Of a stretch of 44,605 bases of DNA, positions 3,221-37,864 are shown one piece after another. Made by a program: the position numbers and the translations under genes. The notes below the pieces were generated by a model, which was not told the origin of the DNA, ran no database searches, and was given only the letters and a program-made list of their open reading frames with translations. This DNA comes from Catajapyx aquilonaris (Eukaryota): assembly GCA_000934665.2 (NCBI GenBank), contig KZ538188.1:62001-106605 (forward strand), written 5' to 3'. Within the stretch, counting starts at the first letter, position 1. Each line of letters starts with the position of its first letter.

Positions 3221-3315
3221 CGTTTGCATCCAAACGAAAGGGACCAAACCAGAACAGCAAGCTTCAGAGTTCGGCCATGTTGGGCCAGTCCGAATAGCAA
3301 CGGCTTGTCTGGCCC
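3221..3315 (-). promoter_or_regulatory. Conserved promoter/leader-exon cassette of gene A with uORF MAEL* (3278-3264)
   Basis: Minus-strand tattcggactggcccaacATGgccgaa is shared with 12064-12090, 21773-21799 and 27213-27239; splice donor acg|gtaagc at 3220. Confidence 0.65.
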
Positions 3316-4342: not shown

Positions 4343-7300
4343 TCAAGAAACAACGTTTTTTTCACCATTTTCAACCTGGCATTTGCGCAAATGACTTACA
4401 AGAACCACACGTTTCTTGAATACTTTACCACACCAATTACATTCAAATTGCTGCTCATCTGATTGTCCACATTTATGACTTTTCAATTTTGCAAGAGAAG
4501 TAAAACTCTTGGAGCAAAGGTCGCACTTGCAAGAGCTCCCTTGTGCATGTGTCAACATGTGTTTATGCAAATGAAGATGAGAAATAAAACCTTCACTGCA
4601 TTCAGTGCACCTGAATGGCCTCTCTCCTGTGCGATGTCGTAACATGTGAGTGTGAAACATTCCCTTAGACAGGAGCACTGAATGACAAATGGAACACTTA
4701 TATTCCTTACTCTTGTAACCATGAAACCTTTCCCTATGGAGTTGTAGAGATGATCGGTGCCCAGTTTTATATGAACAATCTGGGCAACTGTGGTGTGAAT
4801 TGTGCACACGCATGTGTGATCGAAGAGGGGCACCGGAAATAAAACCTTTACCACATTCGGTGCACCGGAATGGTGTCTCTCCTGTGTGACGTCTCACATG
4901 AATATCAAACTTGCTCTTCGAAAACAGCACTTCACTGCAAGTTGGACATTTATGTTCTCCATGTCGCCTGGTTTTGTACCCGTGAAACTTTCTTCTGTGA
5001 AGAATTAGAGCCGATGCACAGGGACATTTATATGAGCAATCAGGGCAACTGTGCTTGGACATGTCTGCCCCATGAAAACTTCTCATGTGATCCTGCAAAT
5101 TATATTTATTAGCCAAGACTTTAGGGCAGTGTTTGCAAGCATGCTGCTCCTTGCCTTTGTAACGTACACCACTTCCGTGTATGTTCATGTGAATTTTCAG
5201 ACCTTGCCTCAATTTGAACCCCTTTCCACATTTATCACAAATGAAAGGAGTCTCATCAGAATGCACCATTAGCTTGTGACGGCTCAGTGACGTCTTGCAA
5301 CTTAAGCTCATTGAACACAGGCTGCACTTGAATGGCTTCTCACCAGTGTGACTACGCTCATGAACAGCAAGGTTTGATTTGCAAAGGAAACCTTGCCCAC
5401 AATATTTGCAAGGGTGCATTTTACCTATGTTATGGGCTCTCATCTTGTGCAGACTCAAACTATTAAAAGAACTAAATTTCTCAGGACATAATTCACATGT
5501 CATTACCTCTTTGCTGACGTGGTATAACCTTATATGTTTAATTAAACCACGACTGGATGTCAAATTTTTTTCACAAAATGGACAGCAGATAGATGCCTCT
5601 GCACTGCTACTAGAAGGGAGAGAAATTTCCCCTTCACCAATAGCATTACCTATTCCATCTCCAAATAACTTACTGAGTGCTTCATTTAAACCTTCCCCTG
5701 TATGGTCCTTCCGATGTTGTTTCAAATATCGATGACGTTTGAAGCACTTATTGCACATGTCACACTTGAAGGGCTTATCATCAGAGTGAACCTCCATATG
5801 CCTAGCTAGGTACCACGCATTAGAAAATGACTTGTTGCACTGATCACAAGTTGACTTTTTACAGGTCTGTGCACGGACATGAACACTGAGACCGCTCTTG
5901 TATGAAAATACTCTCCCACAGTGTTCACACCTGTAAGATCCCTTCTGGGTGTGCACTCTCCTGTGAAGCTTTAAACTCTTCATCTCAGTGAAGGATTTCC
6001 CACAGTCAGCACAAGCTAGTGACCGTGGCTCTTCCTTCTTGACCTTCTTGCTTGGCAATGCACTATCCTGAAAAAGATGGAAACCACATCAGGATTTTGT
6101 CATAATTTTTCACGTTTTCAATCCCAGAGTTGCACGATTGTTCCACAGAGAGAGAAGAATGGTTTGAAAGAAATGAATACTCACAATAATAAAAATTTCA
6201 AGCCAGCAAGTACAGGTGTTATAACATTGTAAGATTCATGAAAGAGACGGTCCCAAACTGACAACTTGCAACATGGAAGTTCCCATTTCTAAATCTGTAG
6301 AACCCTGCCACAATGCACCACAAACAAACAAACAAAACAAAACAAAAAATCCCTACACTCTACAATTTTTTGTTTCAAATTTCTAATCCAAGGTACAATA
6401 AATTCCATAATAATATTCAAAGCAGCCTACCCATAATTTTAGAATTAACAAAAAAACAAAACAAAAAAAAGCCCAGGCCCTGCTGACGCAAATGGGCAGA
6501 ATATATTGCGCTATAAATTAATAGGGAGTACAGTGTAACTGCTAATCCCAGGTAAGCCTACATTTATTCCTCATCCAATCCATCCTTGGTAAATTGGTTC
6601 TCACCTCTTCTGGTTCATCTCCTCCCAAATGCTCTTCTCTCTCATGCTCCTTCAATTCCTGCTTCGTCACAAATGGCTTGGAGCATTTTGGGCAACACAT
6701 AATGGGATCCACCGCAATTGAGAAGTGCCTCAGTTCCACCTGCAATTTAAATTACGTTGTTATTTACTGCCACTACTATCCATGCATCAAATCAAATTGC
6801 AGCCCCGAGTGTAACTCACCCCTTGCACAAAGTAGAACGATGAAGTATCATCCTTTTTGATGGCAGGAATGAGATGTTGTTCCTAAATTTAAAAAATTAA
6901 AAAATTAGCCAACATGTTACTATGTAAATGTCTAATATGAACTTGATTTTCACTATTTTCCTAAATTTCGCGATTTTTTTTCCTCCCAACGGTATTGCGT
7001 AATTTGGCTGAAACTGGACATGCCGTGTTATGGCATAGTCATGTACAGCTGTGATATTTTTCAGCAAATTGCGAGATGGTCTAGCAACATTTCGGCTTAC
7101 TTGATTCGGAATGACCCCTATGCACTATTTCGAGGAATTTGGTTTCTTGACTGCAACTGCCCCAAGGTCAACAACAAATCCCAGACAAAATGAATGCTCA
7201 ATTATGAGTTACCAGTGACCTAAGCAACATGGAAATAGCGATGAATTTCCATGGACAAAAATCGTGTTGCATAATGTAACACGTGCTGCTCTCGCAAAAA

Positions 7301-8686: not shown

Positions 8687-10164
8687 TCTAATACATATTT
8701 CAAGACCATTATCTGTCTGTCTGTCTGTCTTTCTGTCACCTAAACAGATCCATACGGAGGCCTCCACATATGCCCCAGGGGTATCACTAGGGGTAGTTTT
8801 TTTACCGGGAAGGTTCGTAGAGCATTGGAATTGACCTCCGAGGTCATCCTTGGCCACGGCAGGCGAAAGAACTTTGGACGTTGGCCGCCTGTTCTAATAA
8901 TGGGCCAATAATATGACCAACAACTGTTCTGTTTCTGGGGAAACAATAATCCTTCCTTTCCCTCAAGTCCGGAGGGGTCACATCACCCTCTCCTCATGCC
9001 GCCACCTCCAGACCTTTCATTATATTCTTCGTCCGCCAAAAAAGCCCCCGTCCGTCTCCCCCTTCCGATGGCCCCCTCCATCCGCCCGCCCCCTCCTGTT
9101 CCATGCTGGTTTCATGCCCCCACCCCCACNAAAAAAAACGTCGCCACGGCAGCAACGTTCCAGAGGTTGCTCTTAATGAACCAAAGTTGCTACCAGATCA
9201 GAGATCTGCTTATTCGACAAATGTAGACAATGTCCAGGGTCATCAGAAAGGTGGAGTTTTTTTCCTTGGTGCACCAGGAGGAACTGGTAAAACATTTGTG
9301 ACTAATAATCTGTTGTTGGCGAAAGTTCATCAGGATCAACAAATATTGCACGTGAGGTTGCCTCTTCTGGCATAGCATCTATACTCTTTTGCCTGGTGGG
9401 AGGACTGCCCATGCAGCTTTCAAACTTCCTCTAAATTTAGCTACACAGGAAAATGCAAGGTGCAACATCAGCAAGGGTACTGGGGTGGCACAACTTTTGA
9501 GTCAGTGCAGGTTAATTGTTTGGGATGAGTGTACCATGTCCCACAAAGCAGCTTTTGAAGCTCTGGACAGGACACTGCAGGATATCCGGGAATGCAAAAA
9601 GGTTATGGGTGGAGTAACTTTGGTTTTGGCTGGGGACTTCAGACAGACATTGCCTGTTGTTCCACGAGGCACACGAGTCGATGAGATAAAAGCTTGCCTA
9701 AAGTCTTCTTATCTCTGGACTCATGTTCGAAAATTCCATCTCTCTACGAACATGAGGGCCTATCTGCTTGGTGACTACTACTCAGAGGAATTTGCATGTG
9801 ACCTGTTGAAATTAGGAAATGTCCAATTTAGAACCGATGCCCTATAGGAAATGTTGACATGGGATTGATCGGTACGAAGGTGTCCTCTGTCGACGAATTA
9901 AAATTTAAGGTCGTTCCCAATCTTTGCCTCAACTACCAGAGACACAGTTGGTTGTGTGAGAGAGCAATATTAGCTCCGAAAAACAACACCGTCAATCTCA
10001 TCAACGCACAACTCCTCAACCAACTACCTGGTCCTTCCCATACTGTTCTGTGGACACAGTCCCAGACGAGGCCCAGGTTATGGTGTATTGCAAAGGTCCA
10101 AATCAATGAGTCACTCATATGGAAAAGTATTTCATAACCAGAGCAACGCCGGGTATCCGGCTAG
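8687..10164 (+). mobile_element. Defective Helitron
   Basis: A|TC 5' end, subterminal hairpin gccgggtatccggc, CTAG|T 3' end, internal PIF1-like helicase remnant; both ends shared with the copy at 19273-20518. Confidence 0.9.
9248..10075 (+). pseudogene. Helitron PIF1-family (SF1) helicase fragment, frameshifted
   Basis: Walker A GAPGGTGKT, GGRTAH, LIVWDECTM, LAGDFRQTLPVV, LSTNMR and RAILAPKN motifs spread over ORFs 9103..9375, 9389..9847 and 9859..10137. Confidence 0.9.
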
Positions 10165-12014: not shown

Positions 12015-12190
12015 CGTTTGCATCCAAACGAAAGGGACCAGACCAGAACAGCAAGCTTCAGAGTTCGGCCATGTTGGGCCAGTCCGAATAGCAACGGCTT
12101 CTCTGGCCTCGTCCGAACATGCCGTTTCGCAGTTCACATTCCTGCCAACAGATGGCGAGGATAGTGCGGGTGTGGGCTGTCACCTGGTGA
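12015..12190 (-). promoter_or_regulatory. Uninterrupted promoter cassette of gene B: leader exon, uORF MAEL* (12072-12058), GTCCGAA direct repeat, paired CTCF-like motifs (12145-12190)
   Basis: Homology with A, C and D cassettes; donor acg|gtaagc at 12014. Confidence 0.65.
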
Positions 12191-12578: not shown

Positions 12579-15500
12579 TTACCGCACCAATTCAAATTGC
12601 CGCTCATCTGATTGTCCACATTTATGACTTTTCAATTTTGCAAGAGAAGTAAAACTCTTGGAGCAAAGGTCGCACTGGCAAGAGCTCCCTTGCGCATGTG
12701 TCAACATGTGCTTATGCAAATGAGGAAGAGAAATAAAACCTTCACTGCATTCAGTGCACCTGAACGGTCTCTCTCCTGTGCGATGTCGTAACATGTGAGT
12801 GTGAAACATTCCCTTAGACAGGAGCACTGAATGACAAATGGTACATTTATATTCCTTACTCTTGTAACCATGTAACCTTTCCCTATGGAGTTGTAGAGTT
12901 GATCGGTTCCCAGTTTTATATGAACAATCTGGGCAACTGTGCTGTGAATTGTGCACACGCATGTGTGTTCGAAGAGGGGCACGTGAAATAAAACCTTTAC
13001 CACATTCAATGCACCTGAAGGGTGTCTCTCCTGTGTGATGTCTCATATGAATATCAAACTTGCTCTTAGAAAACAGCACTTCACTGCAAGTTGGACATTT
13101 ATGTTCTCCATGATGCATGGTTTTGTAACTGTGAAACTTTCGTCTGTGACGAATTAGAGCCGATGCACAAGGACATTTACATGAGCAATCAGGGCAACTG
13201 TGCTTGGACATGTCTGCCCCATGAAAACTTCTCATGTGATCCTGCAAATTATATTTATTAGCCAAGACTTTAGGGCAGTGTTTGCAAGCATGCTGCTCCC
13301 TGTCTTTGTAACGTACACCACTTCCGTGAACGTTCATGTGAATTTTCAGGTCATTCCCCAATTTGAACCCCTTTCCACATTTATCACAAATGAAAGGAGT
13401 CTCATCAGAATGCACCCTTAGCTTGTGATTCTGCAATGACGTCTTGCAACTTAAGCTCATTGAACACAGGCTGCACTTGAATGGCTTCTCACCAGTGTGA
13501 GTCCGCTCGTGTGTAGCAAGTACAGATTTGAAAAGGAAACGCTGACCACAATATTTGCAGGGGTACATTTTACCAACATTATGGGCTCTCATCCTGTGCA
13601 GACTCAAACTATTAAAAGAACAAAATTTCTCAGGACATAATTCACATGTCAGTACCTCTTTGCTGACGTGGTGTAACTTTACATGTTTAACTAAACCATG
13701 ACTGGTTGTCATAATTTTTTCACAAAATGGACAGCGGAAAGATGCCTCTGCACTGCTACTAGAAGGGAGAGAAATTTCCCCTTCACCAATAGCATTACCC
13801 ATTCCATCTCCAAATAACTGACTGAGAGCTTCATTTAAACCTTCCCCTGTATGGTCCTTCTGATGTCGTTTCAAAGCGGCATCACGTTTGAAGCACTTAT
13901 TGCACTTATCGCACTTGAAGGGCCTGTTATCAGAGTGAACCTCCATATGTCTAGCTAGCTTTGAGGCATTACAAAATGATTTGTTGCACTGATCACAAGT
14001 TGACTTTTGACAGGTCTGTGCATGAACATGAACATTGAGACCGCTCTTGTATGAAAATACTCTCCCACAGTGTTCACACTTGTAAGATCCCTTCGGGGTG
14101 TGCGATAACCTGTGAAGCTTTAAATTCCTCATATTACCGAAGGCTTTTCCACAGTCAGCACAAGCTAGTGACCGTGGCTCTTCCATCTTGACCTTCTTTC
14201 TTGGCAATGCACCATCCTGAAAAAGATAGAAACCACGTAAGGATATTGTCAGAATTTTTCACGTTTACAATCCCAGAGTTGCACGGTTGTTCCACAGAGA
14301 GAGAATGGTTTGAAAGAAATGAATACTCACAAAAATAAAAATTTCAAGCTAGCAAGTACAGGTTTTACGACATTGTTAGATTCATACAAGAGAGGGTCGC
14401 AAACTGACAACTTGCAACATGGAAGTTCCCATTTCTAAATCTGTAGAACCTTGCCACAATGCACTACAAACAAACAAACAAACCAACCAACCAAAAAAAA
14501 AAAATCCCTACACTCTACAATTTTTTGTTTCAAATTTCTAATCTGAGGTACAATAAATTCCGTAATAATAATCAAAGCAGCCTACCCATAATTTCAGAAC
14601 TAAAAAAAAAAAAAAACCAGGCCCTGTGCATACAAATGGGCAGTATATATTGAACTATGAGTAATTGTCACACAAGTTTGAAAAGTAGGTGCTCCTAGAT
14701 TATTATTATTCATCCCTAACTTGAATAATAATAGGTAACCCAACCCATGATAGGCCTGGAATCGTCCCTAATCCAATCCATACTTGGTAATTGATCCTCA
14801 CCTTTTCTAGTTCATTTCCTCCCAAATGCTCTTCCCTCTCATGCTCCTTCAATTCCTGCTGTGTCAGAAATGGCTTGGAGCATTTTGCGCAAAATATAAT
14901 TCGATCAACCACAATAGAAAAGCGCCTCAGTTCCACCTGCAATTTAAATTGCAAATTCATGCATAATATATGTCACTGCATCAAATTACATTTCAACTCA
15001 ATGTCTGACTCACCCCCTGCACAAAATAGTGTGACGAAGGAATTTCCTTTTTGATGTCATGCGTCTGGAGGCGTTGCGCCTAAAAAAAGGGAGGAAAAAA
15101 GGTGTCAATGGCTGGGATGTGACCTTACAAATGCCAAACATGAACTTAAACTACATTTCATCTCACATACATTGTATTCACAAACGTTACAAGATTGACT
15201 TTATTCTTATGAGTGATTCCTCAACTCATTCATCACCCTGCCAGGTAAAGTGGACTCATTTTTGCCACATGCAAGTGCTCCGTCATACATCACAATTGAT
15301 CCAGACTATGGACAGTCGGAGAAATCGCAAAATTCATTGTCAAAATTCATAATTATGATTGGAGTAGCGTGATACGTAGTATTTGGGGGTCACTCCAGCA
15401 GGTGATATCAAATGCGCAAATAAAATTCGACAAAATATAAACTTATAATTTTGCCATATAACTCGTAAGGAGTTGGTGCACTACCCGGATTATAAAAAAA

Positions 15501-18052: not shown

Positions 18053-19272
18053 TAGTATGGCAGATCCATACTCCTTCGTGAATCCAGTGCATGAGACATT
18101 ATACCACAGTTCCACACCACCAAGTTTTACAAACTGACCTTGTCCGATTGATACACAGGGACTTGCTAGCTAGTTATTAATGCTGGTGAGAACATGTAGA
18201 GAAATCAACCTTCTCTATGTAGTTTGTCCCTCGTGTTCTGCTTAACTCTTTGTCTCCCACTGGATCCTGCACGGTTTGGGAGGGGGTTTAAAAATAGCGC
18301 CCTAGGTGAAAACGAGGGTGAAAATCACTGGATCTGACACCATTGGTTTCGCTCTTGATTCATGCACAAGATGGGGCTGAAGCGTCCGAGACCTTCAAAC
18401 CTGAGTTGCATCTTGAGAGAGCCATATACAACCTTATATGCTATGCATGAGAAGGTGACATCACCCTACTGCAACATCTACGCGGGTTTGTAAAGGCGAC
18501 TTCCACCCCTCGAAAAACTCCAAGATAATTCTATAGGATTGCCCAGTCCCTCTGATGGATCATGCAAACATTAAGTGTCCATTAAAAATGAGGTAATGTG
18601 TATCACCAGGTGCAACAACAGGTGACTCAGGTGGCAAGCGGCCACCGCCTAGAGCTTGGAGCAGTCCATCCGGCCAATTAGGAGCAAGGACACTTTTTAT
18701 AACAGAAATGGCGGCAGCGGAGCTTGCCTACTCTTGACGGATCTTTTTTATTTTTTCCCCAGAGAAAATTTCAGAATTTTTAAAATGATTTTCAGCTCCA
18801 TGTCCACTTACCGGGAAATATGCAGCAGGGAGCCATGTCTATTTAAATTCCTGCAGTTTGTTTACAATGAATGAGACCCTTGGCCTATGACATCATGCCA
18901 TTAAAAGTATCACACCAGTGGCTTAAATACTTATGAACATAGATACTGAAAGAGTTACCTAAGTGAAAGAAATATCAATCGGGGTTATACCAGTGAATTT
19001 AAAAAAACAACAACAACTAGAAAAACCCACATTTTTCTACGGTGCAGGCCAAGAAGACCCCTCGCTTCATTCGCTTTTTCTAGGCCTGCAGCCTGGGGTG
19101 GTGGAGGCCATATTGTTAATCCCTCCAGATTTACAGCCAGTGATGACGCCCACCCCCCTATCATATGCAACCACCCCCACCCCCATCCGTACCTTCATTT
19201 TAAGGTGCATTCACATACACATGATTCTATAAAATTAGAAGCCGTTCAAAATTCGACCACAATTATTGATTA

Positions 19273-20518
19273 CTAGCAGGATACCCGGCGTTGCTCGGGT
19301 TATGAAATACTTTTCCATGTAGGTCATTGATTTGGTAGTAACCTTTGAAATAATTAAGGCTATACAATGTTGGCATACCTGTTACATGGACTCCTGGAGC
19401 ATATTGCATGACTGTGCATGAAGTCCAAACACCGAACTGCGGATGTCAGATTGTAAGAGAGAGTACACAATACGCCTTAAAAATCCAGCAAAAGTATGTC
19501 ATGAAAAATTGAAGGTTGTGCAGTAAATGTAGAATAGCATTGAAAGACTGGCACCTCTCTTAGTCATTCCCCAACCCCAAAATGGCCAATCTGGCCTGGA
19601 TGACTGTGCCAGCAGGCAGCTATGGGGTCGCTGGAGAACTCAAGGCCCACCACCACATTAAGGTTAAGGGGGCGCATTAGTAAAAATACGGTAGGTGAAT
19701 TTTTGAGGGAATTTTATATTTTTGTGGCGAAACGCACCGTTAATCGGAAAAATCACGAAGAAGGTGCCCTGGGCCCCGCAAAGGTTTGGCCTTTACTATA
19801 TGGTTCCATACTCGATATGATTGCATTAAAATTGTGGACATATGGACGCAGAAGCGTTCCCGACTTTGTCGCGTTTCCTGCCGCATGTTATTCAAATGGA
19901 CTTTTGGGGAACGCCATTTTCCTCTCACTTCAACTCGATGAAAAGGTCACTTCTAGGCCGAAAATGGTCAAATGACGACGAAAGTGCCCTGCGCCTGATC
20001 ATGTCCTATTTTTTGGTGCAATTTCTGTGTCCATTTCACCATTTTTGCGCCCGTACGGCCGCAGAAGCGTGGCCATGTTGAATCCCCATAATTATGCTGC
20101 CCATGCATAAGCGAGTTTGTTTAGGTCGTCTCCAAGGGCTTCATTGTTACCCTTTTTTTTTAGCTAATGCGCCGCTGTAGATTATGGAACAGCTTGCTGA
20201 CCGCGATGGACCGTCGTTGCCGTGGGAACGTGTTTTTTTGTTGTGTTTGTAATATAATGAAATTGGGCATTCAGTGGTTGCCTCGGTAACCCAAGACAGG
20301 TGATGTTTACAGCCAATTGCTCATTATTAGAAGAGTGTTCCAAAGTCCTTTTCGCCTCCTGTGGCCAAGGATGACCTCGGAGGTCAATTCCAATGTGCTT
20401 ATGTCATTCCCGGTAAAAAACTACCCCTGGTGATACCCCTGGGGCATATGTGGAGGCCTCCGTATGGATCTGTTTAGGTGACAGACAGACAGATATAGGT
20501 CTTGAAATATGTATTAGA
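19273..20518 (-). mobile_element. Non-autonomous Helitron of the same family as 8687-10164, carrying a nested TIR element (~19668-20175)
   Basis: Minus-strand A|TCTAATACATATTTCAAGACC start and gagcaacgccgggtatcctgCTAG|T end; nested ggcgcattag..ctaatgcgcc inverted ends. Confidence 0.85.
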
Positions 20519-20539
20519 TGCAATTGAATTTTCCATTAT

Positions 20540-20958
20540 AGCAACGTTCCAAACAAAAGGTCACCAACACACAGCAATGTTCCACACAAAGGGTCACCAA
20601 CACTCAGCAACGTTCCAAACAAAGGGTCACCAACACACAGCACTGTTCCAAACAAAGGGTCACCAACACTCAGCAACGTTCCAAACAAAGGGTTGCCAAC
20701 CCACAGCAACGTTTCCAAACAAAGGGTTACCAACACACTACAGTAACGTTCCAAACAAAGGGTTGCCAACACACTGTTCCAAACAAAGGGTCACCAACAC
20801 AGCAACGCTCCAAACAAAGGGTCGCCAACACACTGCTCCAAACAAAGGGTCGCCAACACACAGCACTGTTCCAAACAAAGGGTCACCAACACACAGCAAC
20901 GTTCCAAACAAAGGGTTGCCAACCCACAGCAACGTTTCCAAACAAAGGGTTGCCAACA
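20540..20958. repeat. Minisatellite, ~33-bp unit ACACAGCAACGTTCCAAACAAAGGGTCACCAAC, ~13 copies
   Basis: Directly visible tandem units with small variants. Confidence 0.9.
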
Positions 20959-21647
20959 TTTTTTTCCACATGTGCACGTGCATGATTAGCATTGGACATG
21001 TTCATCGTGATTATCCAAATGTCTGATTAATGTGACCATTGACACTCTGAGTAATAGAAGGAAGTGCTAATTAATTATCACGAATATTAACATACTGTGG
21101 TAACATTCGAAAGGGCATACATTTCTTCACCCGCGCATACCACAATTTTTTTTTAGATACGCAGTGACCGATGTTAACTCATCGGAAGTCAGCTGACAAC
21201 TGAGGGGCTACTTCCCCCATTGTGCACGCTTGGACCAGTGGCCAATTAATAACATAATAATAAAGTAATAATTAGAGCTGTCATGGTCATGTCGCAGTAA
21301 CAATGAAGGGAGGGGGGGGGGGGGCAATAGGAAGAGTGCGGTAACAACAATGAAGTGGCTGACCTATCAGAGGGCTTACACATAGTCCACAAGCATTTTA
21401 ATATTATAGGTATAGGTATTTTGTGTGGCCGTATGATCATACGAGCAACAGGGCTGCGGGAAACAAAGGGTTAAAGTGGGGAAGGTCTGGCCCTAGGAAA
21501 TGACCTCTGTAGCCTTACTGTTACTGCTCATTTTGATCAAAGGTCATCAACCAAGTCTTCCACCAACCCACACTGTGGCCTGCAGTTTTACAACAGACAA
21601 AATGATTCTGAGGCAGAGTGTTGACCTCCCTGCACTGTTCTCATTAC

Positions 21648-21810
21648 CTCCTCCGTAGTGGACGTGTCTTCTTCCCTATTTCCCCTGCTTCATATCCAAA
21701 AGGGGCAGGACCCGAGGCCCCCTTCTTCTTTCCCAACCAGAGGAGAAGAGGACGAGAAAATCCTCCTTCTCATTCGGCCATGTTGGGCCAGTCCGAATAG
21801 CAACGGATTC
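21648..21810 (-). promoter_or_regulatory. Promoter/leader exon of gene C with uORF MAE* (21781-21770)
   Basis: Collinear with 27060-27245 of gene D; donor gag|gtaatg at 21647. Confidence 0.65.
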
Positions 21811-21814
21811 CCTG

Positions 21815-22036
21815 CAGCGTTGCCAACCTGACCCGTAGAAACCACAAGACCACATGAGTCAAAATTACCGGATTTCGCCTAAAAAATTACCATAAAAATA
21901 CCGTTTACAGTTTTACCGTATCCATACATGCCATTACATCGTACTAAATTACTGTATTCCCCATAACAGCCCACGGACACTACCCCTTATCTTCTGGGCT
22001 CATGCCCCATAATAACCGTATAGGTTGGCAACACTG
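21815..22036. mobile_element. MITE inserted inside the gene C promoter cassette
   Basis: TIR cagcgttgccaacct / aggttggcaacactg; internal (t/a)taccg-type repeats; the flanks rejoin to give the cassette seen in B and D; no clean TSD. Confidence 0.75.
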
Positions 22037-22319
22037 CCCCGTGGCCTCGTCCGAATAGATGTAACAGAAGGAACGGACTGGAAGCGGCGACAACCGGAAC
22101 GCACCAAAGAATCATCATAATTATTTTGCAGTTTATTTCGAGCTGTAATTGACTTTATTTCTCTGCCCAATTGTTGCTGGAAATTATCGTGCAACAGAGA
22201 GAGGTCACGACATGAGGCGGAGAGGGTGATCCTTAATCTCTGTGTGACTGGCAACTCCTTCGACAGTGTACTATGGTGTCTTGTGCGACAGTTTGATTTT
22301 TTGGCTAAAAGTTGAATGA

Positions 22320-23206
22320 ATGAAGATGAGGCATGTGCAGTGCCAAGTCAACGGATGTCGGAGCAACGGGGCGTCAAAGGGAATCCGTTTCTTCCGATTC
22401 CCTGTTAAGGACAAAAGCAGGTTGGTTTTGCACAGTGCAAAAGATGCGGCAATAATGAGAGTTGTAGACTGTGGAACACTAATAATTGTACTTGCAGGTG
22501 CTTGGATTGGATTGTGGCTTGCGGGAAGGAAGCGATCCTGACGGAACTGGATGACTCCAAGCTTCAGGCGAGATACGTGTGCTCCGTGCACTTTGACACG
22601 GAAGACTTCATGGATCCTGTCTCCCGAGAGAAGCTCATGCCTGGAGCTCGCCCAAAGGCACCACTTCCCGCAAGCTCTGAAATGCTGGATGAGACCACCA
22701 CCGAAGCAGACGCATCACCCGAGGGCAACTGGCAGGAGAGCATTGCGAGTCATCACATGCATTTGGAGCCCAGCAGCACTTCTGCGGCGGTGAGAGAGGA
22801 AATGTCGGAGCAAGCGGCCAGGATTGGCAGACAAGTCATCCCACCAGACAAGAAGCAGAAGAACAGACCGTCTCCTGACGTGTCCAAGTTGCGCCAGCTG
22901 TTGAGGAAGAAGACGGACAGGATCCGATACCTGGAGAAGAGGTGCGCCATGCTGTCCAAGCCCTCCAGCAGCAAGAAGTCCCGCTTGCAAGAACTGGTGT
23001 CTCTGATGGGCCAACACCTGACCGGCGACCCACTCCTGATGTTCTGCATGCAGTTGACGCACAAGGGGGGGTCGCCGTACACCACCGACGAGAAGAGGAT
23101 GGCAAAGTCCTTTTTCCACCATGGCCCGGAGCTGTACCGCTTCCTGTTGGAGAGAGGCTTCATCTTGCCAGCGGAGAGCACGATCCGCAAGGGGGTCAAC
23201 GAGTAG
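22320..23206 (+). CDS. THAP-domain protein, 269 aa, resembling the N-terminal part of a P-element/THAP9-type transposase
   Basis: Exons 22320-22420 and 22498-23206 with a 77-nt GT-AG intron join in frame: CQVNGC..FFRFP..R/CLDWIVAC..VCSVHF..LMPGARP (C2CH THAP signature); coiled-coil-like LRQLLRKKTDRIRYLEKR; C-terminal PYTTDEKRMAKSFFHHGPELYRFLLERGFILPAESTIRK. Confidence 0.85.
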
Positions 23207-23712
23207 TATGGTGAAAAATACACAACCTAAGAAAATAACACTGACCATGAAAACAATATAACCACCGATGGTCTCGAAAGACATTTTAGTGACAATATCC
23301 AAGGGATGCTTTGATTATTCCTCAAAACAGTTCATTAAAATCCTATTTCCTGCAGTTCATAATTCTGAAGTCGTATCCTGCAAGAAGTTGTTTGGGGGGG
23401 AAAAAAAACTGTTACCTGTTGGAAATAGAACGACAGGGTCAAGAGAAGGGAACTCTGTCAGAAATTATTTTATTTACCAGAGGTTTCACATTCAGCACAT
23501 TCTAATCAATATCTCGTAGGTTGACTCTTACGTTAGCCAAAGTACATGGTAATGGCCCTGTGCTATGGAACCTTTTCCCTCCTCATATCTGGCTATCAGA
23601 GGCCATTAGACGAATTGGGAATGGTTTTCGTAAGTCCAGTACGTGCAAAAATAAAACGTGACTGTACAACATGATTTTCAGGTGTGACTGGAATAGACAT
23701 GATCACCAGTTG

Positions 23713-26700
23713 TTATTTGTCATTTTTAACCTGGCATTTACGCAAATGTAGCACAAGACGGCTACGTCTCTTGAGTACTTTACCGCACCAATTACATCCA
23801 AATTGCCGCTCATCTGAGCGTTTACATTTGTGATTTTTCAAATCGGCAAGAGATGTAAAACTCTTGGAGCATTTGCTCCACTTGCAAAAGTATCCAGGCT
23901 GATGCATCATCCTGTGTTTGCGCAAATAATAGAAAGAAACAAATCCCTCATTACATTCAGTGCACTTGAATGGTCTCTCTCCCGCATGACATCGCATATG
24001 CGTATCAAACTTTTTCTTATAATAGAACGCAAGATTGCAAATTGAACACTCATGGTCCTTTTGTCCCCTTCTTTGGCCCCTTGTTTTGTATCCATGAAAC
24101 TTTTGTCTGTGAAGAATTAGGGTACCTCTACTTGTGCATTTATACGAGCAATCAGGGCAACTGAACGTGGACTTGGGCGCCCCATGATAACTTCTCATAT
24201 GATACTGCAAAGACTTTTTATCAACTAAGATCTTAGGGCAGTGTTTGCAAGCAGCCCGCTTCCTGTCTTTGTCGTGTACTTTCATGTGATCCTTCAGACA
24301 TTCCCTCAGTTTGAATCCCTTCCCACATTTATCACAAATGAAAGGAGTCGCATCTGAATGCACCAATAACTTGTGATGCTGCAATGATGTCTTTGAACCC
24401 AAGCTCTTTGAACACAGGCTACACTTGAATGGCTTCTCACCAGTGTGACTGCGCTCATGTCTAGCAAGAGAGAATTTGGTAGGACAAACTTTTCCACAAT
24501 AGTTGCAGGGGAACATTTTCCCAATGTAATGGACTCGCTTCTTGTGCAAATTCAAATCAGATGTAGAATAAAATTTCTTGGAACATACTTCACAAGTGAA
24601 TACCTGGTCACGGACATGGGAAACTCTTACATGATTAATTAAGCCACTTCTGGATTCCATATTTTTTGCACAAATTGGACAGCAGAGAAATGTCCCTGTC
24701 TCACTGTTTGAAGAGAGAGAATTTTCACCTTCATCAATAGCATGGCCTATTCTGTCTCCAAGTAATTTTTTGAGAGCTTCCTTCAAACCTTCCCCTGTAT
24801 GGTCCCTCTGATGTTTTTTCAAATTTCCATGACGTTTGAAGCGCCTACTGCACATGTCACACTTGAAGGGCCTGTCGTCAGAGTGAACTGCCATATGGTG
24901 AGAGAGGTTCCACTGGTCACGAAATGATTTGTTGCACTGATCACAAGTGAATGACCTCTGACATATCTGCGCATGAAGATGCCTACTGAGATGGCCCTTG
25001 TGTGAAAATACTCTCCCACAGTGTTCACATTTGAAGGATTCCTCCTTGGTGTGCTCTGTATTGTGAAGCTTCAGCTTGCTAAAGCTGTTCCCCTGGTCAC
25101 GAGTAGCTTGTAACTGTTTCTCTTTCTTCTTGATCTTCCTCCTTAGCGATGCACAATCCTGAATAAAAAGGAAACCATATAAGGATCCTCTCAGTAGGAT
25201 TAATTTGACTGCGAGCAGGGTGGCATTGTGGTCCATGCAAACATAAAATGTTTTGAAAAAAAAAAAAGAAAAAAGAAAAAACACTTGGAAAAATAAAAAT
25301 TACATATATAATCCCCAGCTAGTATACAGCGTGTATCGGAACTCTACCATAAGCCATGTACCAATGGCATAAGGGGCACCAGAGCATCATTATATCTAGA
25401 GGGGTCATCATGTCTAGGCAGCCCCATCACGTAGATAATTGATCATTTGCGAAGTAGCGATTGAGCTTAAGCGTGATTGTAGAATAGCAGTGCATCTGGG
25501 GGGAACTGCATTCTAAGAGACCCTTAGGCCCGTATTCATAATGGAATTCGAACGCGGGGTCGGGGTAGAACCTGGGGTTGAGGCGGAGTTGACCCCGGGT
25601 TCGTATTCATAATGGCCTTGAAACCCCGCGATCCGGGGGGGTAGTTGAAGACTGGAAAGGGACTCCCAAGATATTTGTAATTGGTGGTAATTACTAGCGG
25701 TCTTCCGTTCCAGAAAAACTTCTTTTTCGCAGAGAGAACCCCACCCTTTCTAAAAATCAGAACCTGTGTTTTCCCCACATTGACAGACAGGCCAATTTCA
25801 TCCAAGTACTGAGCCAGGGCTATTTGACGCTGTAAAAACCTGAATGAGAGCTGACGGCAGAGCTATATGTCAGAAAGAGTAATAAAGAATTCGTTACTTC
25901 ATGACAATCCTGTGCGCATTAATCACTAATCCAATCGACGCTTGATAATATTGATCCTCACCTCTTCCAGTTCATTTCCTCCCAAATGCTCTTCTCTCTC
26001 ATGCACCTTCAATTCCAGCTTGGTCACAAATGGCTTGGAGCATTTTGGGCAGAACACAATGCGATCCACCCCAATAGAGAAGTGTCTCAGTTCTATCTGC
26101 AATTTCAATTACAAGGTCATTGCAATCAAATCACACTGCAACACAAAGTGTGACTCACCCCCTGCACAAAGTAGTGCGATGAAGTATTTTCCCGTTTGAT
26201 GACAGGATGGAGATGATGTTGCCCCTAGAAAATAGAAATATTGTAATTTTATTGTTACGCTTTAATTTGTTTTGCTGCCGCAGCTGCTGAGTTTAACAAC
26301 GTACTCTATGCAAAGAAAATAAAAATATTTTCCAACATTCTGTTCCATAAACTCGACATAAAGAAAAGAAAAGTAGTCGGTTACTTGAGTAGAGAGCCCA
26401 GAATGTTCCCATCCGTTGTCGTGATTCAGACGATATCAACGAGTGACTTTAGTTCTATAAAAATGGCAGGCAAGCACCTGGACTGGTCTGTCAAATTTTA
26501 ATGTGGCTGATGAGAGTGGGGGAAATTCATGGTTCTCTCCCTAACAGATTGCAATTTACTTACTGCAGGGTCTTCTTCCATGACCTTGTCCTCTGCCTCC
26601 GGCTTGACCCTGTGCAGTGGTGAATCCACAGGTGTTTCAAGGCCTCCCCTGTCCAGTGGTCCATCGCCAGGTTCAGTTGCTCCATCCTGACCTCCTTCTC

Positions 26701-27209: not shown

Positions 27210-27344
27210 TCATTCGGCCATGTTGGGCCAGTCCGAATAGAGCAACGGGCTTCCCCCTGGCCTCGTCCGAATATCCTCTTTGGCAGTTCACATTCCTGCC
27301 AACAGATGGCGACAGTAGTGCAGGTGGTGGCTGCTACCTGGTGG
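27210..27344 (-). promoter_or_regulatory. Promoter cassette of gene D: uORF MAE* (27221-27210), GTCCGAA direct repeat, paired CTCF-like motifs (27299-27344)
   Basis: + CCAACAGATGGCG and - CCACCAGGTAGCAG, 46-bp span; core identical to A/B/C. Confidence 0.65.
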
Positions 27345-27689
27345 CACATATTAGAACTAGTTCTAAATTGTGGCGGGAAGACATGTTTTCCTTTGAGTTA
27401 TTTCCAGACATGCTAAACGATCATGTTAAGGCCCACCAGTCTCCCGGGGAGTCACACCAGAAGTCATGGGTAAGTTTCAGTCTTTATTCACCATAGTAGG
27501 CTACAGACTTGCTCACTGGACAAAATAATCAAACAGACTTTTTCCTTCTTTTTTATGACACATTCAACCGGCCATACCCTCAATACAAATTATGTACAAA
27601 AATTCCTGTGCCCCTCATGAGCTAGCTGTACCACAACAATTACATTCATACTGCCCACACTACTAGTGTTTTCAATTATTATTTTTCAC

Positions 27690-28356: not shown

Positions 28357-30261
28357 CTAAGATTTTAGGACAGAGTTCTTGTCTTTGTCATGTTCTTTCA
28401 TGTGATTTTTCAGAGTGTTCTTCCATTTGAATCGCTGTCCACATTTATCACAAATGAAAGCATTATCAGCAGAGTGCAACATTAGCCTGTGACACTTCAA
28501 TGATTTAGTTGAACTCAAGTTCTTTGAACACACGGTACACTTGTATGGCTTCTCACCAGTGTGGCTACGCACATGTCTAACAAGTTCAGATTTGTCAAGG
28601 CAAACTTTACCACAATATTTGCAGGGGTGCATTTCCCCCATGTTATGGGTTCGCTTCTTGTGCGCATACAACTGAAACATAGAATTAAATTTCTCAGGAC
28701 ATAATTTGCAAGCATATACATGGCCAGAGACATGGTAATATTTTATGTGACTAATTAAGCCACTACTGGATTCCAGATTTTTTGCACAATATGGACAGCA
28801 CAGCGCAGCCTTTGAACTGCCGCTAGAACGGAGATCCTTTTTACCTTTACCAATAGCAACAACTATTCCATCTCGAAGTAATTTTTTGCGTGCTATATTC
28901 AAACCTTCCCCTGTATGCACCTTCTGATGTTGTTGCAAAGTGGACAGAAACTTGAAGGACTTAGTGCACTTGTCACACTTGAAGGATCTATCATCAGAGT
29001 GAACTGCCATATGTCTGGACAGGTACCTGTAATAATCATATGATTTGTTGCACTTATTACAAGTGAATGGCATTTGACATGCCTGTGAGAGAACATGACT
29101 CCTGAGATTGCCCGTGTGTGAAAATAGCCTCCCACAGCGTTTGCATTTGAGAGAGTCCTCCTCGGCGTGCTCCTTCCCGTGACGCTTTAAATGCCTCTTA
29201 TTGCTAAAGGTTTTCCCACAGTCATCACAGGCATGTAACCGTTTCATCTTTCTTGGCAATGCATGATCCTGAAAAAAAAAAGGAATCCATACTAGTAACC
29301 TTGCAATGGGGCCACGTTAAATGTGAGTGGCACACTCTGATCCTTACCTTTTCTAGTTCATTTCCACCCGTATGCTCCTCTCTCTCATGCTCCTTCAATT
29401 CCTGCTTGGTCACAAATGGCTCGGAGCATTTTGGGCAAAACAAAATGGGATCCACCGCAATAGAGAAGCGCCTCAGTTCTACCTGCAATTTAAATTACAT
29501 AGTTAATTACTGAATAATATCATGACAACATTTCACTTCATCAAATCACATTGTAACGCAAAGGGTGACTTACTCCCTGCACAAAATAGTACGATGAAGC
29601 AATTTTCTTCTCCTGGGTAAGACTGCCTGGCTGTTGTTCCTAAGGAAAAAAAAAAAGAAGGTGCAAACCATTGGTAATAATCACTGCTTATTAGACACCA
29701 TACCAGAAATAGTAAATTTTAATGTACGAATGTTCTCGTAATTGAAGTCACAATGAAGCATTAGTGTAATGCTGTAAAGTGAAGTACATTGTGAAATTTA
29801 CTTACTTCATCTACATTTTCAGTAATAATGTCCTCCACCTTCATATTTGCATCTAGTAACTGGGAATTCAAGGAAAGATCCTGCGATGCCACGTCAGAAT
29901 GTCCACTAACATCAGACTGTACGTCCCGACCTTCTGCTCTTTCCAAATTCCAAGCTGGGCCCTCCTCCTAAAACAATCAGCAATAAAAAGCGATTATTAC
30001 CATTTAAGTTTCCAAACCAACAACCATGCATGTACAGCCAACCTCCACTTTGAAATCCATCACAAGCTCTTCCGTATCCTCCACTTCTTCCTTCACTTGA
30101 ACACCGTCAATTCCACCAACTCCTTCTCCTTCCTCCTCCGTCTCTTCCTCCTTGATCTGGTCCAATCCTCCATGTGTTAAGCTGTGGGCAAGAAGCTCCA
30201 AATGTGTCCTAAATATCTGCAGACAGCAACGGCATTTGTGCTTCTCACAAGCATAATCCAT
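28357..30261 (-). CDS. C2H2 zinc-finger cluster gene E, ~497 aa, 9 array fingers, 3'-truncated by a frameshifting deletion
   Basis: Exons 30261-30043, 29967-29806, 29639-29574, 29482-29348, 29268-28357; phase 0, GT-AG, open; no promoter cassette seen upstream. Confidence 0.7.
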
Positions 30262-36321: not shown

Positions 36322-37647
36322 TCACTTGTTTCCTCTGTGGGTTCTAACATGTCTTTTCAAGTGTCCTGATGAACTGAACATCTTCTTGCAAATGATGCAA
36401 CTGAATGGCTTCTCGCCTGTGTGAGTCCTCATGTGGGTTCGAAAGTTTCCCGATTTACTGAACCTTTTGTTACAAACCTTACATGTGAAAGGTCTCTCAT
36501 CTGTGTGTTTTATCATATGTTGCAACAAAGACGATGTGTGACTGAATCTCATCTTGCAAATCAGGCAACTAAATGGCTTCTCCCCTGTGTGAGTCCTCAT
36601 ATGGCTACTCAAATGTCCTGACCGACTAAATTTTCTCTTGCAAATCAAGCAACTGAATGGCTTCTCCCCTGTGTGAGTCCTCATGTGCATTTTCACTGAA
36701 TGACTAAACTTTTTCTTGCAAATTGAGCAACTGAATGGCTTCTCCCCTGTGTGAGTCCTCATGTGTAAATTCAAACTTAATGAATGACTAAACTTTCTCT
36801 TGCAAACTTTGCAATGGAATGGCTTCTCCCCTGTGTGGGTCCTCATATGGGTATTCAAATTTCCTGATTGATTAAACTTTCTCGCACAAACCTTGCAACT
36901 GAATGGCTTCTCCCCTGCGTGGGTTCTCATGTGAATATTCAAATGTCCTGACTGACTAAATTTTCTCTTGCAAACTTTGCAATGAAATGGCTTCTCCCCT
37001 GTGTGGGTTCGCATATGCCCATTCAAATGTCCTGACTGATTAAACTTTCTCTTGCAAATTGTGCAACTGAATGGCTTCTCCCCTGTGTGAGTCCTCATGT
37101 GTGTATTCAAACTTACTGAATGACTAAACTTTCTCTCACAAACCTTGCAACTGAATGGCTTCTCCCCTGTGTGGGTCCTCATATGGCTATTCAATTGTCC
37201 TGAACTACTAAACTTTCTCCTGCAAACTTTGCAATGAAATGGCTTCTCCCCTGTGTGGGTTCGCATATGCCCATTCAAATGTTCTGACCGCCTAAACCTT
37301 CTCTCACAAACCTTGCAACTGAATGGCTTCTCATCTGTGTGGGACCTCATGTGGCCATTCAAACTTCCTGACTGCCTAAACTTTCTCTCACAAACCTGGC
37401 AACTGAATGGCTTCTCCCCTGTGTGAGTCCTCATGTGTGTCTTCAAATTTCCTGACCACACAAACTTTTTCTTGCAAACCTGGCAGCTGAATGGCTTTTC
37501 TTGGGAATGGCTTCTCATGTGACGCTGCAAATTCATCCAGGAACTAAACTTCTTCTTGCAAATCTGACAACCATTCTCCACCAAGTGTTTCTTCCTCTGC
37601 TTGTCTTGCTGGATCCCATTCATCTTATTCTCTTGGGCACATATTTT
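36322..37647 (-). CDS. C2H2 zinc-finger gene G, terminal exon with 15 tandem fingers (upstream exons not identified)
   Basis: ORF 36322..37623 of 84-bp repeats with HTGEKPF linkers; in-frame acceptor tttcag| at 37648; finger 11 has a 2-aa deletion. Confidence 0.9.
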   Translation of the reverse strand, partial: KICAQENKMNGIQQDKQRKKHLVENGCQICKKKFSSWMNLQRHMRSHSQEKPFSCQVCKKKFVWSGNLKTHMRTHTGEKPFSCQVCERKFRQSGSLNGHMRSHTDEKPFSCKVCERRFRRSEHLNGHMRTHTGEKPFHCKVCRRKFSSSGQLNSHMRTHTGEKPFSCKVCERKFSHSVSLNTHMRTHTGEKPFSCTICKRKFNQSGHLNGHMRTHTGEKPFHCKVCKRKFSQSGHLNIHMRTHAGEKPFSCKVCARKFNQSGNLNTHMRTHTGEKPFHCKVCKRKFSHSLSLNLHMRTHTGEKPFSCSICKKKFSHSVKMHMRTHTGEKPFSCLICKRKFSRSGHLSSHMRTHTGEKPFSCLICKMRFSHTSSLLQHMIKHTDERPFTCKVCNKRFSKSGNFRTHMRTHTGEKPFSCIICKKMFSSSGHLKRHVRTHRGNK

Positions 37648-37864
37648 CTGAAATTAATGGCAGCTCATGAAATAATGCAGGTGTATTTGAAAGGATCATG
37701 TAGGGCGGGGGATGCTTGCCATGCAATGTTACTGGGTGGCCCAAGAGTTCTGTTACAAATCTCAAAAGCTAATTTTTCTTAATTTAAAGCAAATATGCAG
37801 AATCCATGTTAACAAATTAGGATACTAATTTAGAAGTGAAACAAATATTTTTTTGTCTGCAAAA

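Follow-up and report, generated by a model that had tools for sequence, protein, structure and literature searches.

A catalytically truncated, P-element-like THAP gene at a single locus within a zinc-finger gene cluster of Catajapyx aquilonaris

What is the short THAP gene that lies among the zinc-finger (ZNF) genes of contig KZ538188.1 of Catajapyx aquilonaris: a transposon-derived gene that has been kept, or the relic of a P-type element? The gene occupies positions 22320 to 23206 on the plus strand of a stretch of 44,605 nt (the window; positions 62,001 to 106,605 of the contig, assembly GCA_000934665.2), and all coordinates below are those of the window. A preliminary description, made from the sequence of the window, had read it as a spliced gene for a domesticated, truncated P-element transposase. 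We propose that it is a stationary, single-copy remnant of a DNA transposon of the P/THAP9 superfamily, stripped of its terminal repeats and of all sequence that would encode the RNase H domain and what follows it, but still with an intact, intron-containing gene of 269 codons. We give this reading a probability of about 0.5. Its parts differ in strength. The P-derived and catalytically truncated nature of the gene, akin to that of the KP repressor of Drosophila, is supported, and its capture or domestication by the host, as judged from the sequence, is plausible but unproven.

The gene encodes a protein whose N-terminal zinc finger is split by an intron. The start codon at 22320 is immediately preceded by an in-frame TGA, and the two exons, when joined by a script according to their coordinates, give 810 nt, that is, 269 codons and a stop codon in one intact frame. 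The donor reads AG/GTTGGT at 22420/22421, and the acceptor reads ttgcag/G at 22497/22498. Exon 1 matches positions 1-27 of the Pfam THAP profile with 17.7 bits, and exon 2 matches positions 32-84 with 20.8 bits; neither half alone reaches the cut-off of 23.9 bits. The intron therefore divides one domain into two collinear halves. The tblastn alignments of related proteins, which in exon 1 cover 22323-22418, skip the intron with exactly one residue absent, corresponding to the split codon, as in the relatives P0033 (46-77/79-128) and P0023 (14-41/43-286). All GT..AG pairs near the junction that give an in-frame, stop-free product (24 models) were also scored against a profile of 21 relatives from which the query had been left out. 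The 22420/22498 model ranked first with 160.8 bits, compared with 148.2 bits for the runner-up and 135.6 bits for exon 2 alone. We infer the 22420/22498 splice from this protein comparison. A sequencing run of unknown kind (X5) yielded contigs over parts of the gene and over intergenic DNA that leave the junction uncovered; it contains no 22420/22498 joint and is uninformative on expression. The intact frame of 269 residues and the 77-nt intron within the THAP domain, both claimed in the preliminary description, are thus borne out by the coordinates and the splice scoring, and the hidden Markov model of the THAP domain recognizes both halves in the proper order, each below the cut-off by itself.

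The zinc finger retains the residues on which a THAP domain is recognized. All four zinc ligands are present, with C8 and C13 in exon 1 and the C62-x2-H65 pair in exon 2, together with P28, W38, F66 and an ARP variant of the AVP motif, the last three of which also lie in exon 2. The C, H, F, A and P of the exon 2 part are kept in those relatives that cover the respective columns. The protein thus carries at its N-terminus the C2CH THAP zinc finger that marks membership of the P-element/THAP9 superfamily.

To which proteins is the product related? An exhaustive phmmer search over 1.84 billion representative sequences with a threshold of E 0.001 recovered 67 relatives. The best of them is a 724-residue protein (E 2e-16, 29% identity across query residues 1-234) with helix-turn-helix (HTH), RNase H N-terminal, GTP-binding and RNase H C-terminal Pfam domains. 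A Pfam scan that covered 29 of the 67 relatives at E <=0.001 found the P-type HTH domain (PF12017) in 24, the RNase H N-terminal domain in 21 and the THAP domain in 17, and most of the long scanned relatives also contain the GTP-binding insertion and the RNase H C-terminal domain. The relatives that bear names are insect proteins. Judged by their sequences, the relatives are P-element/THAP9-type transposases and fragments thereof. A profile built from 21 short relatives and the query matches the Drosophila P transposase structure 6p5a with an E value of 4.8e-15 over chain residues 78-213, and it also matches the THAP1 and THAP2 structures at approximately 1e-9. In the ESM Atlas, the nearest clusters include many arthropod proteins of approximately 270 residues with THAP and PF12017 (score 0.93), which is a lead rather than a test.

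Less sensitive searches were silent. A word-indexed protein search with the exon 2 product gave 529 near-length and 3874 longer candidates, none at E <=0.001; this blank reflects the word filter because the exhaustive search did recover relatives. A single-sequence search of solved structures returned chance-level matches only (E >=0.19). Direct Pfam matches of the exon 2 product to DASH_Spc34 and DUF7825 (E 0.04-0.05) were taken as noise. The P-type HTH domain behind the helix is accordingly recognized via the relatives and the fold and not via the Pfam model itself. It is the best conserved portion of the protein: of the 13 HTH columns in which at least 41 of 63 aligned relatives agree, 11 carry that same residue.

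The predicted structure points in the same direction as the profile. An AlphaFold run with a 64-row alignment gave a mean predicted local distance difference test score (pLDDT) of 81, with values above 90 for the helix and the HTH domain. In exon 2 numbering, the model contains a confident THAP part at residues 1-55 and a compact helical domain at residues 157-235 (pLDDT 93-98). The intervening linker is poorly defined (pLDDT 42-54 for exon 2 residues 60-120), and the relatives align poorly there. Among the 350,542 chains searched with Foldseek, the top two were 6pe2 and 6p5a, with weak E values of 0.16 and 0.24. In VIA-align, model residues 165-235 superimposed on residues 128-198 of 6p5a with a Z score of 7.3 and a root-mean-square deviation of 3.0 over 67 aligned residues, whereas the next row, an unrelated structure, reached a Z score of 2.7. 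The region of the long helix aligns with 6p5a from residue 78 onward in the profile comparison. On the model, this helix is a candidate coiled-coil dimerization helix and a possible counterpart of the leucine zipper of P transposase.

Does the protein pair through this helix? A homodimer model that covers exon 2 residues 118-235 scored 0.63, compared with 0.14 for the best of three controls. The mark set for such models is reached by 21 of 30 one-chain solved pairs and by none of 23 proteins solved as single chains; among eukaryotic proteins it is reached by 17 of 29, yet by only 1 of 7 among those without an older solved relative. At least 90% of the contacts agree between runs, and the pLDDT of the partner is at least 74. 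Along the helix at residues 127-153, contacts recur every three to four residues, with the same-residue pairs 135:135 and 142:142. This spacing is that of a parallel coiled coil, and the contacts extend into the HTH domain. The pass may nevertheless reflect only memory or likeness because the P transposase dimer has already been solved. The model thus supports self-association, which it favors without demonstrating binding.

The C-terminal part of a transposase is missing from the gene and from its surroundings. A tblastn search with the 67 relatives at E <=1 found no match to the catalytic domain anywhere in the window, including the 21 kb downstream of the gene. The alignments of the relatives end at 23185-23203, which in these proteins is 3-6 residues short of the RNase H N-terminal domain. 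Forty-one of the 63 aligned relatives continue for at least 30 residues beyond the position of this stop. Two tblastn alignments do extend to 23278 and 23320, but they run through stop codons with little identity. At the stop, the GC content falls from 0.59 to 0.37. The split RNase H domain with a GTP-binding insertion, which characterizes an active transposase, is absent. With its catalytic, GTP-binding and C-terminal domains all missing, the product is unable to cleave DNA or to join it.

The preliminary description fares well on these points. The P-transposase homology that it named holds in the phmmer search, the profile match to 6p5a and the fold comparison; the segment Y..EK..A..P..YRFL..LP..STIR, which it singled out, is present and forms the core of the P-type HTH domain; the THAP and coiled-coil architecture is recovered, the former by profile and the latter as a long helix in the predicted structure; and the truncation that it described extends to the whole catalytic part.

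Can the locus still move? The flanks contain no inverted repeats beyond chance in a local alignment against the reverse complement or in a repeat search of 19000-26000. The best inverted pair, 22278-22293 and 23744-23759, matches at 14 of 16 positions and was equalled in 17 of 200 shuffles; the eight bases outside its arms differ, which leaves no 8-bp target duplication, and its right arm falls in sequence common to the paralogous ZNF genes. In two DNA runs, which are a possible source of the assembly, one contig (21971-24252) spans the gene at flat depths of 33.9 and 20.7, and no further contig falls on the gene at a likeness of at least 90%, the scope of this comparison being copies at that likeness. 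The flanking repeats reach a depth of 140-200 in the same runs, and thousands from 25228 onward. In the second sample, X5, pieces of the gene and of its 3' flank occur in identical form, and the window itself yielded no second copy of the gene. The lack of terminal inverted repeats noted in the preliminary description is thus upheld, and the dispersed, repeat-bearing copies that would make the gene an ordinary mobile element were looked for and not found at a likeness of at least 90%. The locus does not resemble a multi-copy KP-type element that keeps both ends, again as far as copies of that likeness are concerned, and it shares with the P-neogenes of Drosophila the state of a stationary, single locus without terminal inverted repeats.

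The gene sits in an array of C2H2 ZNF genes that are arranged in tandem on the minus strand of this eukaryotic window. Likeness to the other ZNF units stops at approximately 22057 on its left and resumes at 23713 on its right, and the segment of 1.65 kb in between is therefore private to this spacer; the corresponding spacer in the unit at 27273-27614 is approximately 340 nt long. The stop codon lies 506 nt ahead of the end of the convergent ZNF frame (gene D) at 23713, in agreement with the distance of approximately 500 bp given previously. An AATAAA motif is present in this interval, near 23650. On the other side, the gene stands head to head with the upstream module of a ZNF unit. This module is an orphan, in that neither an acidic exon nor a finger array was found to its left, and it is split by a 224-nt insert. 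The modules share a core of approximately 40 nt (TTCGGCCATGTTGGGCCAGTCCGAATAGCAACGG) that is 95-97% identical in four units, compared with approximately 75% likeness for the remainder of the units. We regard the core as a candidate for the promoter of these ZNF genes or for another regulatory module at their 5' side. P elements are described as preferring to insert upstream of genes (PMC6719617), and the position of the gene beside a gene-upstream module is consistent with the preference given in that source.

Past the stop codon, a feature of a different kind is observed. A short low-copy repeat occupies approximately 23235-23305, about 30 nt downstream of the THAP stop; at this place the contigs of the second sample break, and an additional contig, which has about twice the depth of single-copy sequence and carries A>G at 23244, comes to its end. 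It may mark the end of the P-derived sequence.

Is the frame maintained by selection, or is it intact by chance? The coding sequence is GC-richer than its flanks, as the preliminary description had observed, with a GC content of 0.57 compared with 0.44 in the 5' flank, 0.39 in the 3' flank and 0.40 in the intron. At third codon positions the value (GC3) rises to 0.75 overall and to 0.90 in the helix and HTH part, compared with 0.43 at second positions (GC2) and with a GC3 of 0.44 in the neighboring host genes. Since GC2, the intron and the flanks all stay at 0.39-0.44, the bias operates at the level of codons and is not regional. A kept gene is also favored by the intact frame, splice sites and zinc ligands, by the agreement in 11 of the 13 conserved HTH columns and by the lack of sister copies at a likeness of at least 90%. 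On the whole, the balance tips slightly toward a frame maintained by selection.

A number of observations weigh against a kept P-derived gene. The high GC3 can equally mean a recent arrival whose composition has not drifted. Frames of this composition remained free of stop codons in simulation with a probability of 0.59 at 2% divergence, 0.27 at 5% and 0.09 at 10%, so that a young relic should frequently have kept its frame. In the direct Pfam scan, the protein did not match PF12017 at E <=1. The last HTH helix has a Gly, three residues ahead of the stop, in place of a Trp that is found in 54 of 63 relatives, and none of the listed relatives has Gly at that position. The same frame past the stop reads YGEK, and one relative has YGMKPGF, a hint that the frame may once have been longer and was closed by a recent nonsense mutation. 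The top relative is only 29% identical, with neither a source element nor an orthologue known. Finally, the surroundings are a repeat-rich and fast-changing cluster next to a decayed ZNF unit.

Most of these points speak for the strongest alternative, namely that the locus is a neutral relic: a 5' piece of a P-type element that landed, or was trimmed by deletion, fairly recently, with a frame that is intact for lack of time and a product that is incidental. This explanation would account for third positions (0.75-0.90) that have not drifted from the local 0.40-0.44, for a frame whose stop-free survival is 0.27-0.59 at 2-5% divergence, for the Trp to Gly change beside the stop and for a possible trace of the old frame behind it. 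It would also suit a segment that is private to one spacer of the array and lies beside a decayed unit, satellite DNA and a miniature inverted-repeat transposable element (MITE)-like insert. The missing orthologue might be added, but it carries no weight because the protein of the neighboring ZNF gene D, used to test whether the databases include close relatives of this animal, itself finds no match better than 36% identity. Against a relic stands the lack of any sister copy at a likeness of at least 90% in the DNA runs; a recent origin therefore requires a source family that is absent or very diverged, or an arrival that happened only once. The frame, the intron and the zinc ligands have come through unharmed, although the element has lost its two terminal repeats and its 3' two thirds. 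The intron and flanks have the background GC content while the third codon positions do not, unlike a uniformly foreign piece, and the gene is identical in the second sample. We regard the neutral relic as a possible explanation, though a tentative one.

At the other end of the scale, the gene may be a fixed host gene in the full sense, in which a KP-like module of THAP, zipper and HTH was captured beside the orphan ZNF-unit promoter module and kept by selection. The arthropod proteins of approximately 270 residues with THAP, zipper and HTH would then represent a recurrent class of convergently tamed regulators rather than annotation debris. We find this extended form doubtful.

Might the two exons instead be only the beginning of a longer gene? 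They could be joined to catalytic exons or to unrelated host exons by a donor ahead of the stop (e.g., GA/GTAGTA at 23202/23203): a GT lies two bases ahead of the stop codon, P-type genes have introns, and relatives commonly continue past this point (41 of 63). However, none of the 67 relatives finds a catalytic-domain match at E <=1 in the window, including its 21 kb downstream of the gene, the next gene downstream is convergent, the GC content is at background directly past the stop, and the candidate donor is weak by our own reading against the consensus. A longer gene is accordingly improbable. That the locus is an ordinary non-autonomous element of the KP kind, with many dispersed, repeat-bearing copies that a full-length element could mobilize, is largely refuted and most improbable of all, for although its coding content is that of KP and the nearest-cluster lists hold many arthropod proteins of approximately 270 residues with THAP and PF12017 (a lead only), its flanking inverted repeats are at chance level (17 of 200 shuffles) with no matching 8-bp duplication, it has single-copy depth in one contig at a likeness of at least 90%, and the window gave no second copy.

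If the locus is a stationary remnant with an intact gene, as we propose, what would its product do? From its N-terminus, it comprises the THAP zinc finger, the linker of predicted disorder, the long helix and the P-type HTH domain. If made, the protein would pair via the helix and HTH region and bind DNA via the THAP and HTH domains, and it would thus be a sequence-specific DNA binder without enzyme activity. A KP-like role is conceivable, either by occupation of the sites that related P-type transposases bind or by assembly with these transposases into inactive mixed dimers; a role as an ordinary transcription regulator is the alternative. Transcription may come from the orphan ZNF-unit module approximately 260 nt upstream, which faces away from the gene, and we infer that this module could act as a two-way promoter for the THAP gene.

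Features of the THAP gene and of the surrounding zinc-finger array (window coordinates)
Feature	Position	Strand	Remarks
Exon 1	22320..22420	+	Residues 1-33 plus 2 nt of codon 34; initial third of the THAP finger
Intron	22421..22497	+	77 nt, GT..AG, phase 2, within the THAP domain
Exon 2	22498..23206	+	Ends with stop TAG at 23204-23206
Start of exon 2, remaining THAP	22498..22666	+	Residues 34 to ~90; THAP profile and pLDDT 90-97
Linker	22667..22873	+	Residues ~91-159; acidic, Ser-rich, predicted disordered; includes a basic KKQKNRP stretch
Long helix	22874..22957	+	Exon 2 residues 126-153 (protein residues 160-187); pLDDT 85-97
P-transposase-type HTH domain	22967..23203	+	Exon 2 residues 157-235; C-terminal end ...LPAESTIRKGVNE
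Stop codon TAG	23204..23206	+	3-6 residues ahead of the RNase H N-terminal domain start in relatives
Segment private to this ZNF spacer	22059..23712	.	1.65 kb; likely extent of the inserted P-derived piece and flanks
Orphan ZNF-unit upstream module	21647..22058	-	Head to head with the THAP gene, ~260 nt from the ATG
ZNF-unit core of ~40 nt	3270-3306, 12064-12105, 21773-21814, ~27210-27250		Followed by a second GTCCGAATA motif
Long ZNF frames	4343-6088, 12579-14258, 23713-25299, 28357-29316	-	Tandem array

The cluster around the gene contains further repeats and insertions. The insert that splits the orphan module (21815-22037, 224 nt) is MITE-like, with terminal inverted repeats of 15-16 nt (CAGCGTTGCCAACCT / AGGTTGGCAACACTG); it is absent at this place in the other ZNF units and is a genome repeat, with a depth of 140-200 in the DNA runs compared with approximately 34 for single-copy sequence. 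A tandem array of a 33-nt unit in at least 13 copies (20515-20991) separates the decayed ZNF unit from the orphan module. A very high-copy repeat (25228-25500), whose summed depth runs to thousands compared with approximately 34, is located just upstream of the finger exon of ZNF gene D. Two neighboring open frames at 8950-9847 on the plus strand, in different frames and with one N in the first, include a P-loop (GAPGGTGKTF); by our own reading they resemble a PIF1/Helitron-type helicase, and we take them to be probably a decayed Helitron-type piece. A separate, classical C2H2 tandem array of 443 amino acids with HTGEKPF linkers throughout lies at 36322-37653 on the minus strand, and its CpG observed/expected ratio of 0.19 and GC3 of 0.52 are unlike those of the four paralogous ZNF genes of the cluster. 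Scans of the window for tRNA genes and Rfam families gave no matches.

Why does such a locus matter? Truncated transposases that keep the DNA-binding and pairing parts are a classic means of transposon self-restraint, as in KP and the 66-kDa repressor, and subsequently a source of host regulators, as in the P-neogenes. Outside Drosophila, the present locus offers a clean example: an intact, single-copy gene without element ends, cut nearly at the point of KP and placed head to head with the promoter-like module of a rapidly evolving zinc-finger array. Should the gene be expressed and conserved, the KP architecture itself, and not only the longer 66-kDa form, can become fixed as a gene; as a neutral relic, the locus would be an ordinary transposon remnant. 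Truncated P-type leftovers as potential regulators are already a known kind, and this locus is a further case.

How does the protein compare with the known systems? P transposase is described in PMC7776569 as a succession of THAP domain, coiled coil, HTH domain, RNase H domain with a GTP-binding insertion, and C-terminal domain. The window protein is homologous to the Drosophila P transposase (DmTNP; 6p5a and 6pe2) and to vertebrate THAP9 over the THAP domain, the helix and the HTH domain, and unlike them it lacks the split RNase H fold, the GTP-binding insertion and the C-terminal domain. The 66-kDa P repressor, which arises by retention of the third intron, is a truncated transposase product that binds P DNA and represses transposition, and in the same account it lacks the C-terminal third only (PMC7776569). 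In the window protein, by contrast, approximately two thirds are gone, and the truncation is in the DNA rather than due to alternative splicing. In host proteins of the THAP1 type, a coiled coil follows the THAP finger at the N-terminus, according to PMC6402169. The window protein shares this order, its coiled coil being predicted. THAP1-type host proteins are not known to carry the P-type HTH domain (PF12017).

The closest parallels among immobile genes are the P-neogenes. Nouaud and Anxolabehere reportedly described stationary truncated P elements in the Drosophila montium subgroup in 1997, and such elements also occur in the Drosophila obscura group. P-neogenes are conserved across species and expressed, both of which have been documented. 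Like the window gene, they are immobile, P-derived and without terminal inverted repeats, and they have kept the DNA-binding front without transposase activity; a role in the host as repressor-like or DNA-binding proteins has been proposed for them. The window gene differs from them in its host lineage. A domesticated P element is also described in D. serrata (PMC8434751).

In architecture, the closest match is KP, the type II P repressor of Drosophila melanogaster. KP is a protein of 207 amino acids (PMC7776569), is presented as a self-encoded repressor (PMC8700633), shares residues 1-199 with P transposase, binds the transposase sites and may form mixed multimers (bioRxiv 10.1101/2020.10.06.328815). 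Like the window protein, it contains only a THAP domain, a dimerizing helix and an HTH domain, and it likewise lacks the RNase H, GTP-binding and C-terminal domains. The element that encodes KP is internally deleted, mobile and multi-copy and keeps both terminal repeats; in contrast, the window locus is single-copy and without repeats. KP is identical to its own transposase, whereas the window protein is at most approximately 30% identical to any known P-type protein, has a linker that is approximately 60 residues longer and is encoded with an intron inside the THAP domain. In the sequence alignment, LPS 185-187 of the transposase is paired with LPA of the window protein, whose last residue therefore corresponds to transposase residue 197, or to 198 by structure. 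Thus, the window protein has the KP-type repressor architecture and is co-linear with KP to within one or two residues.

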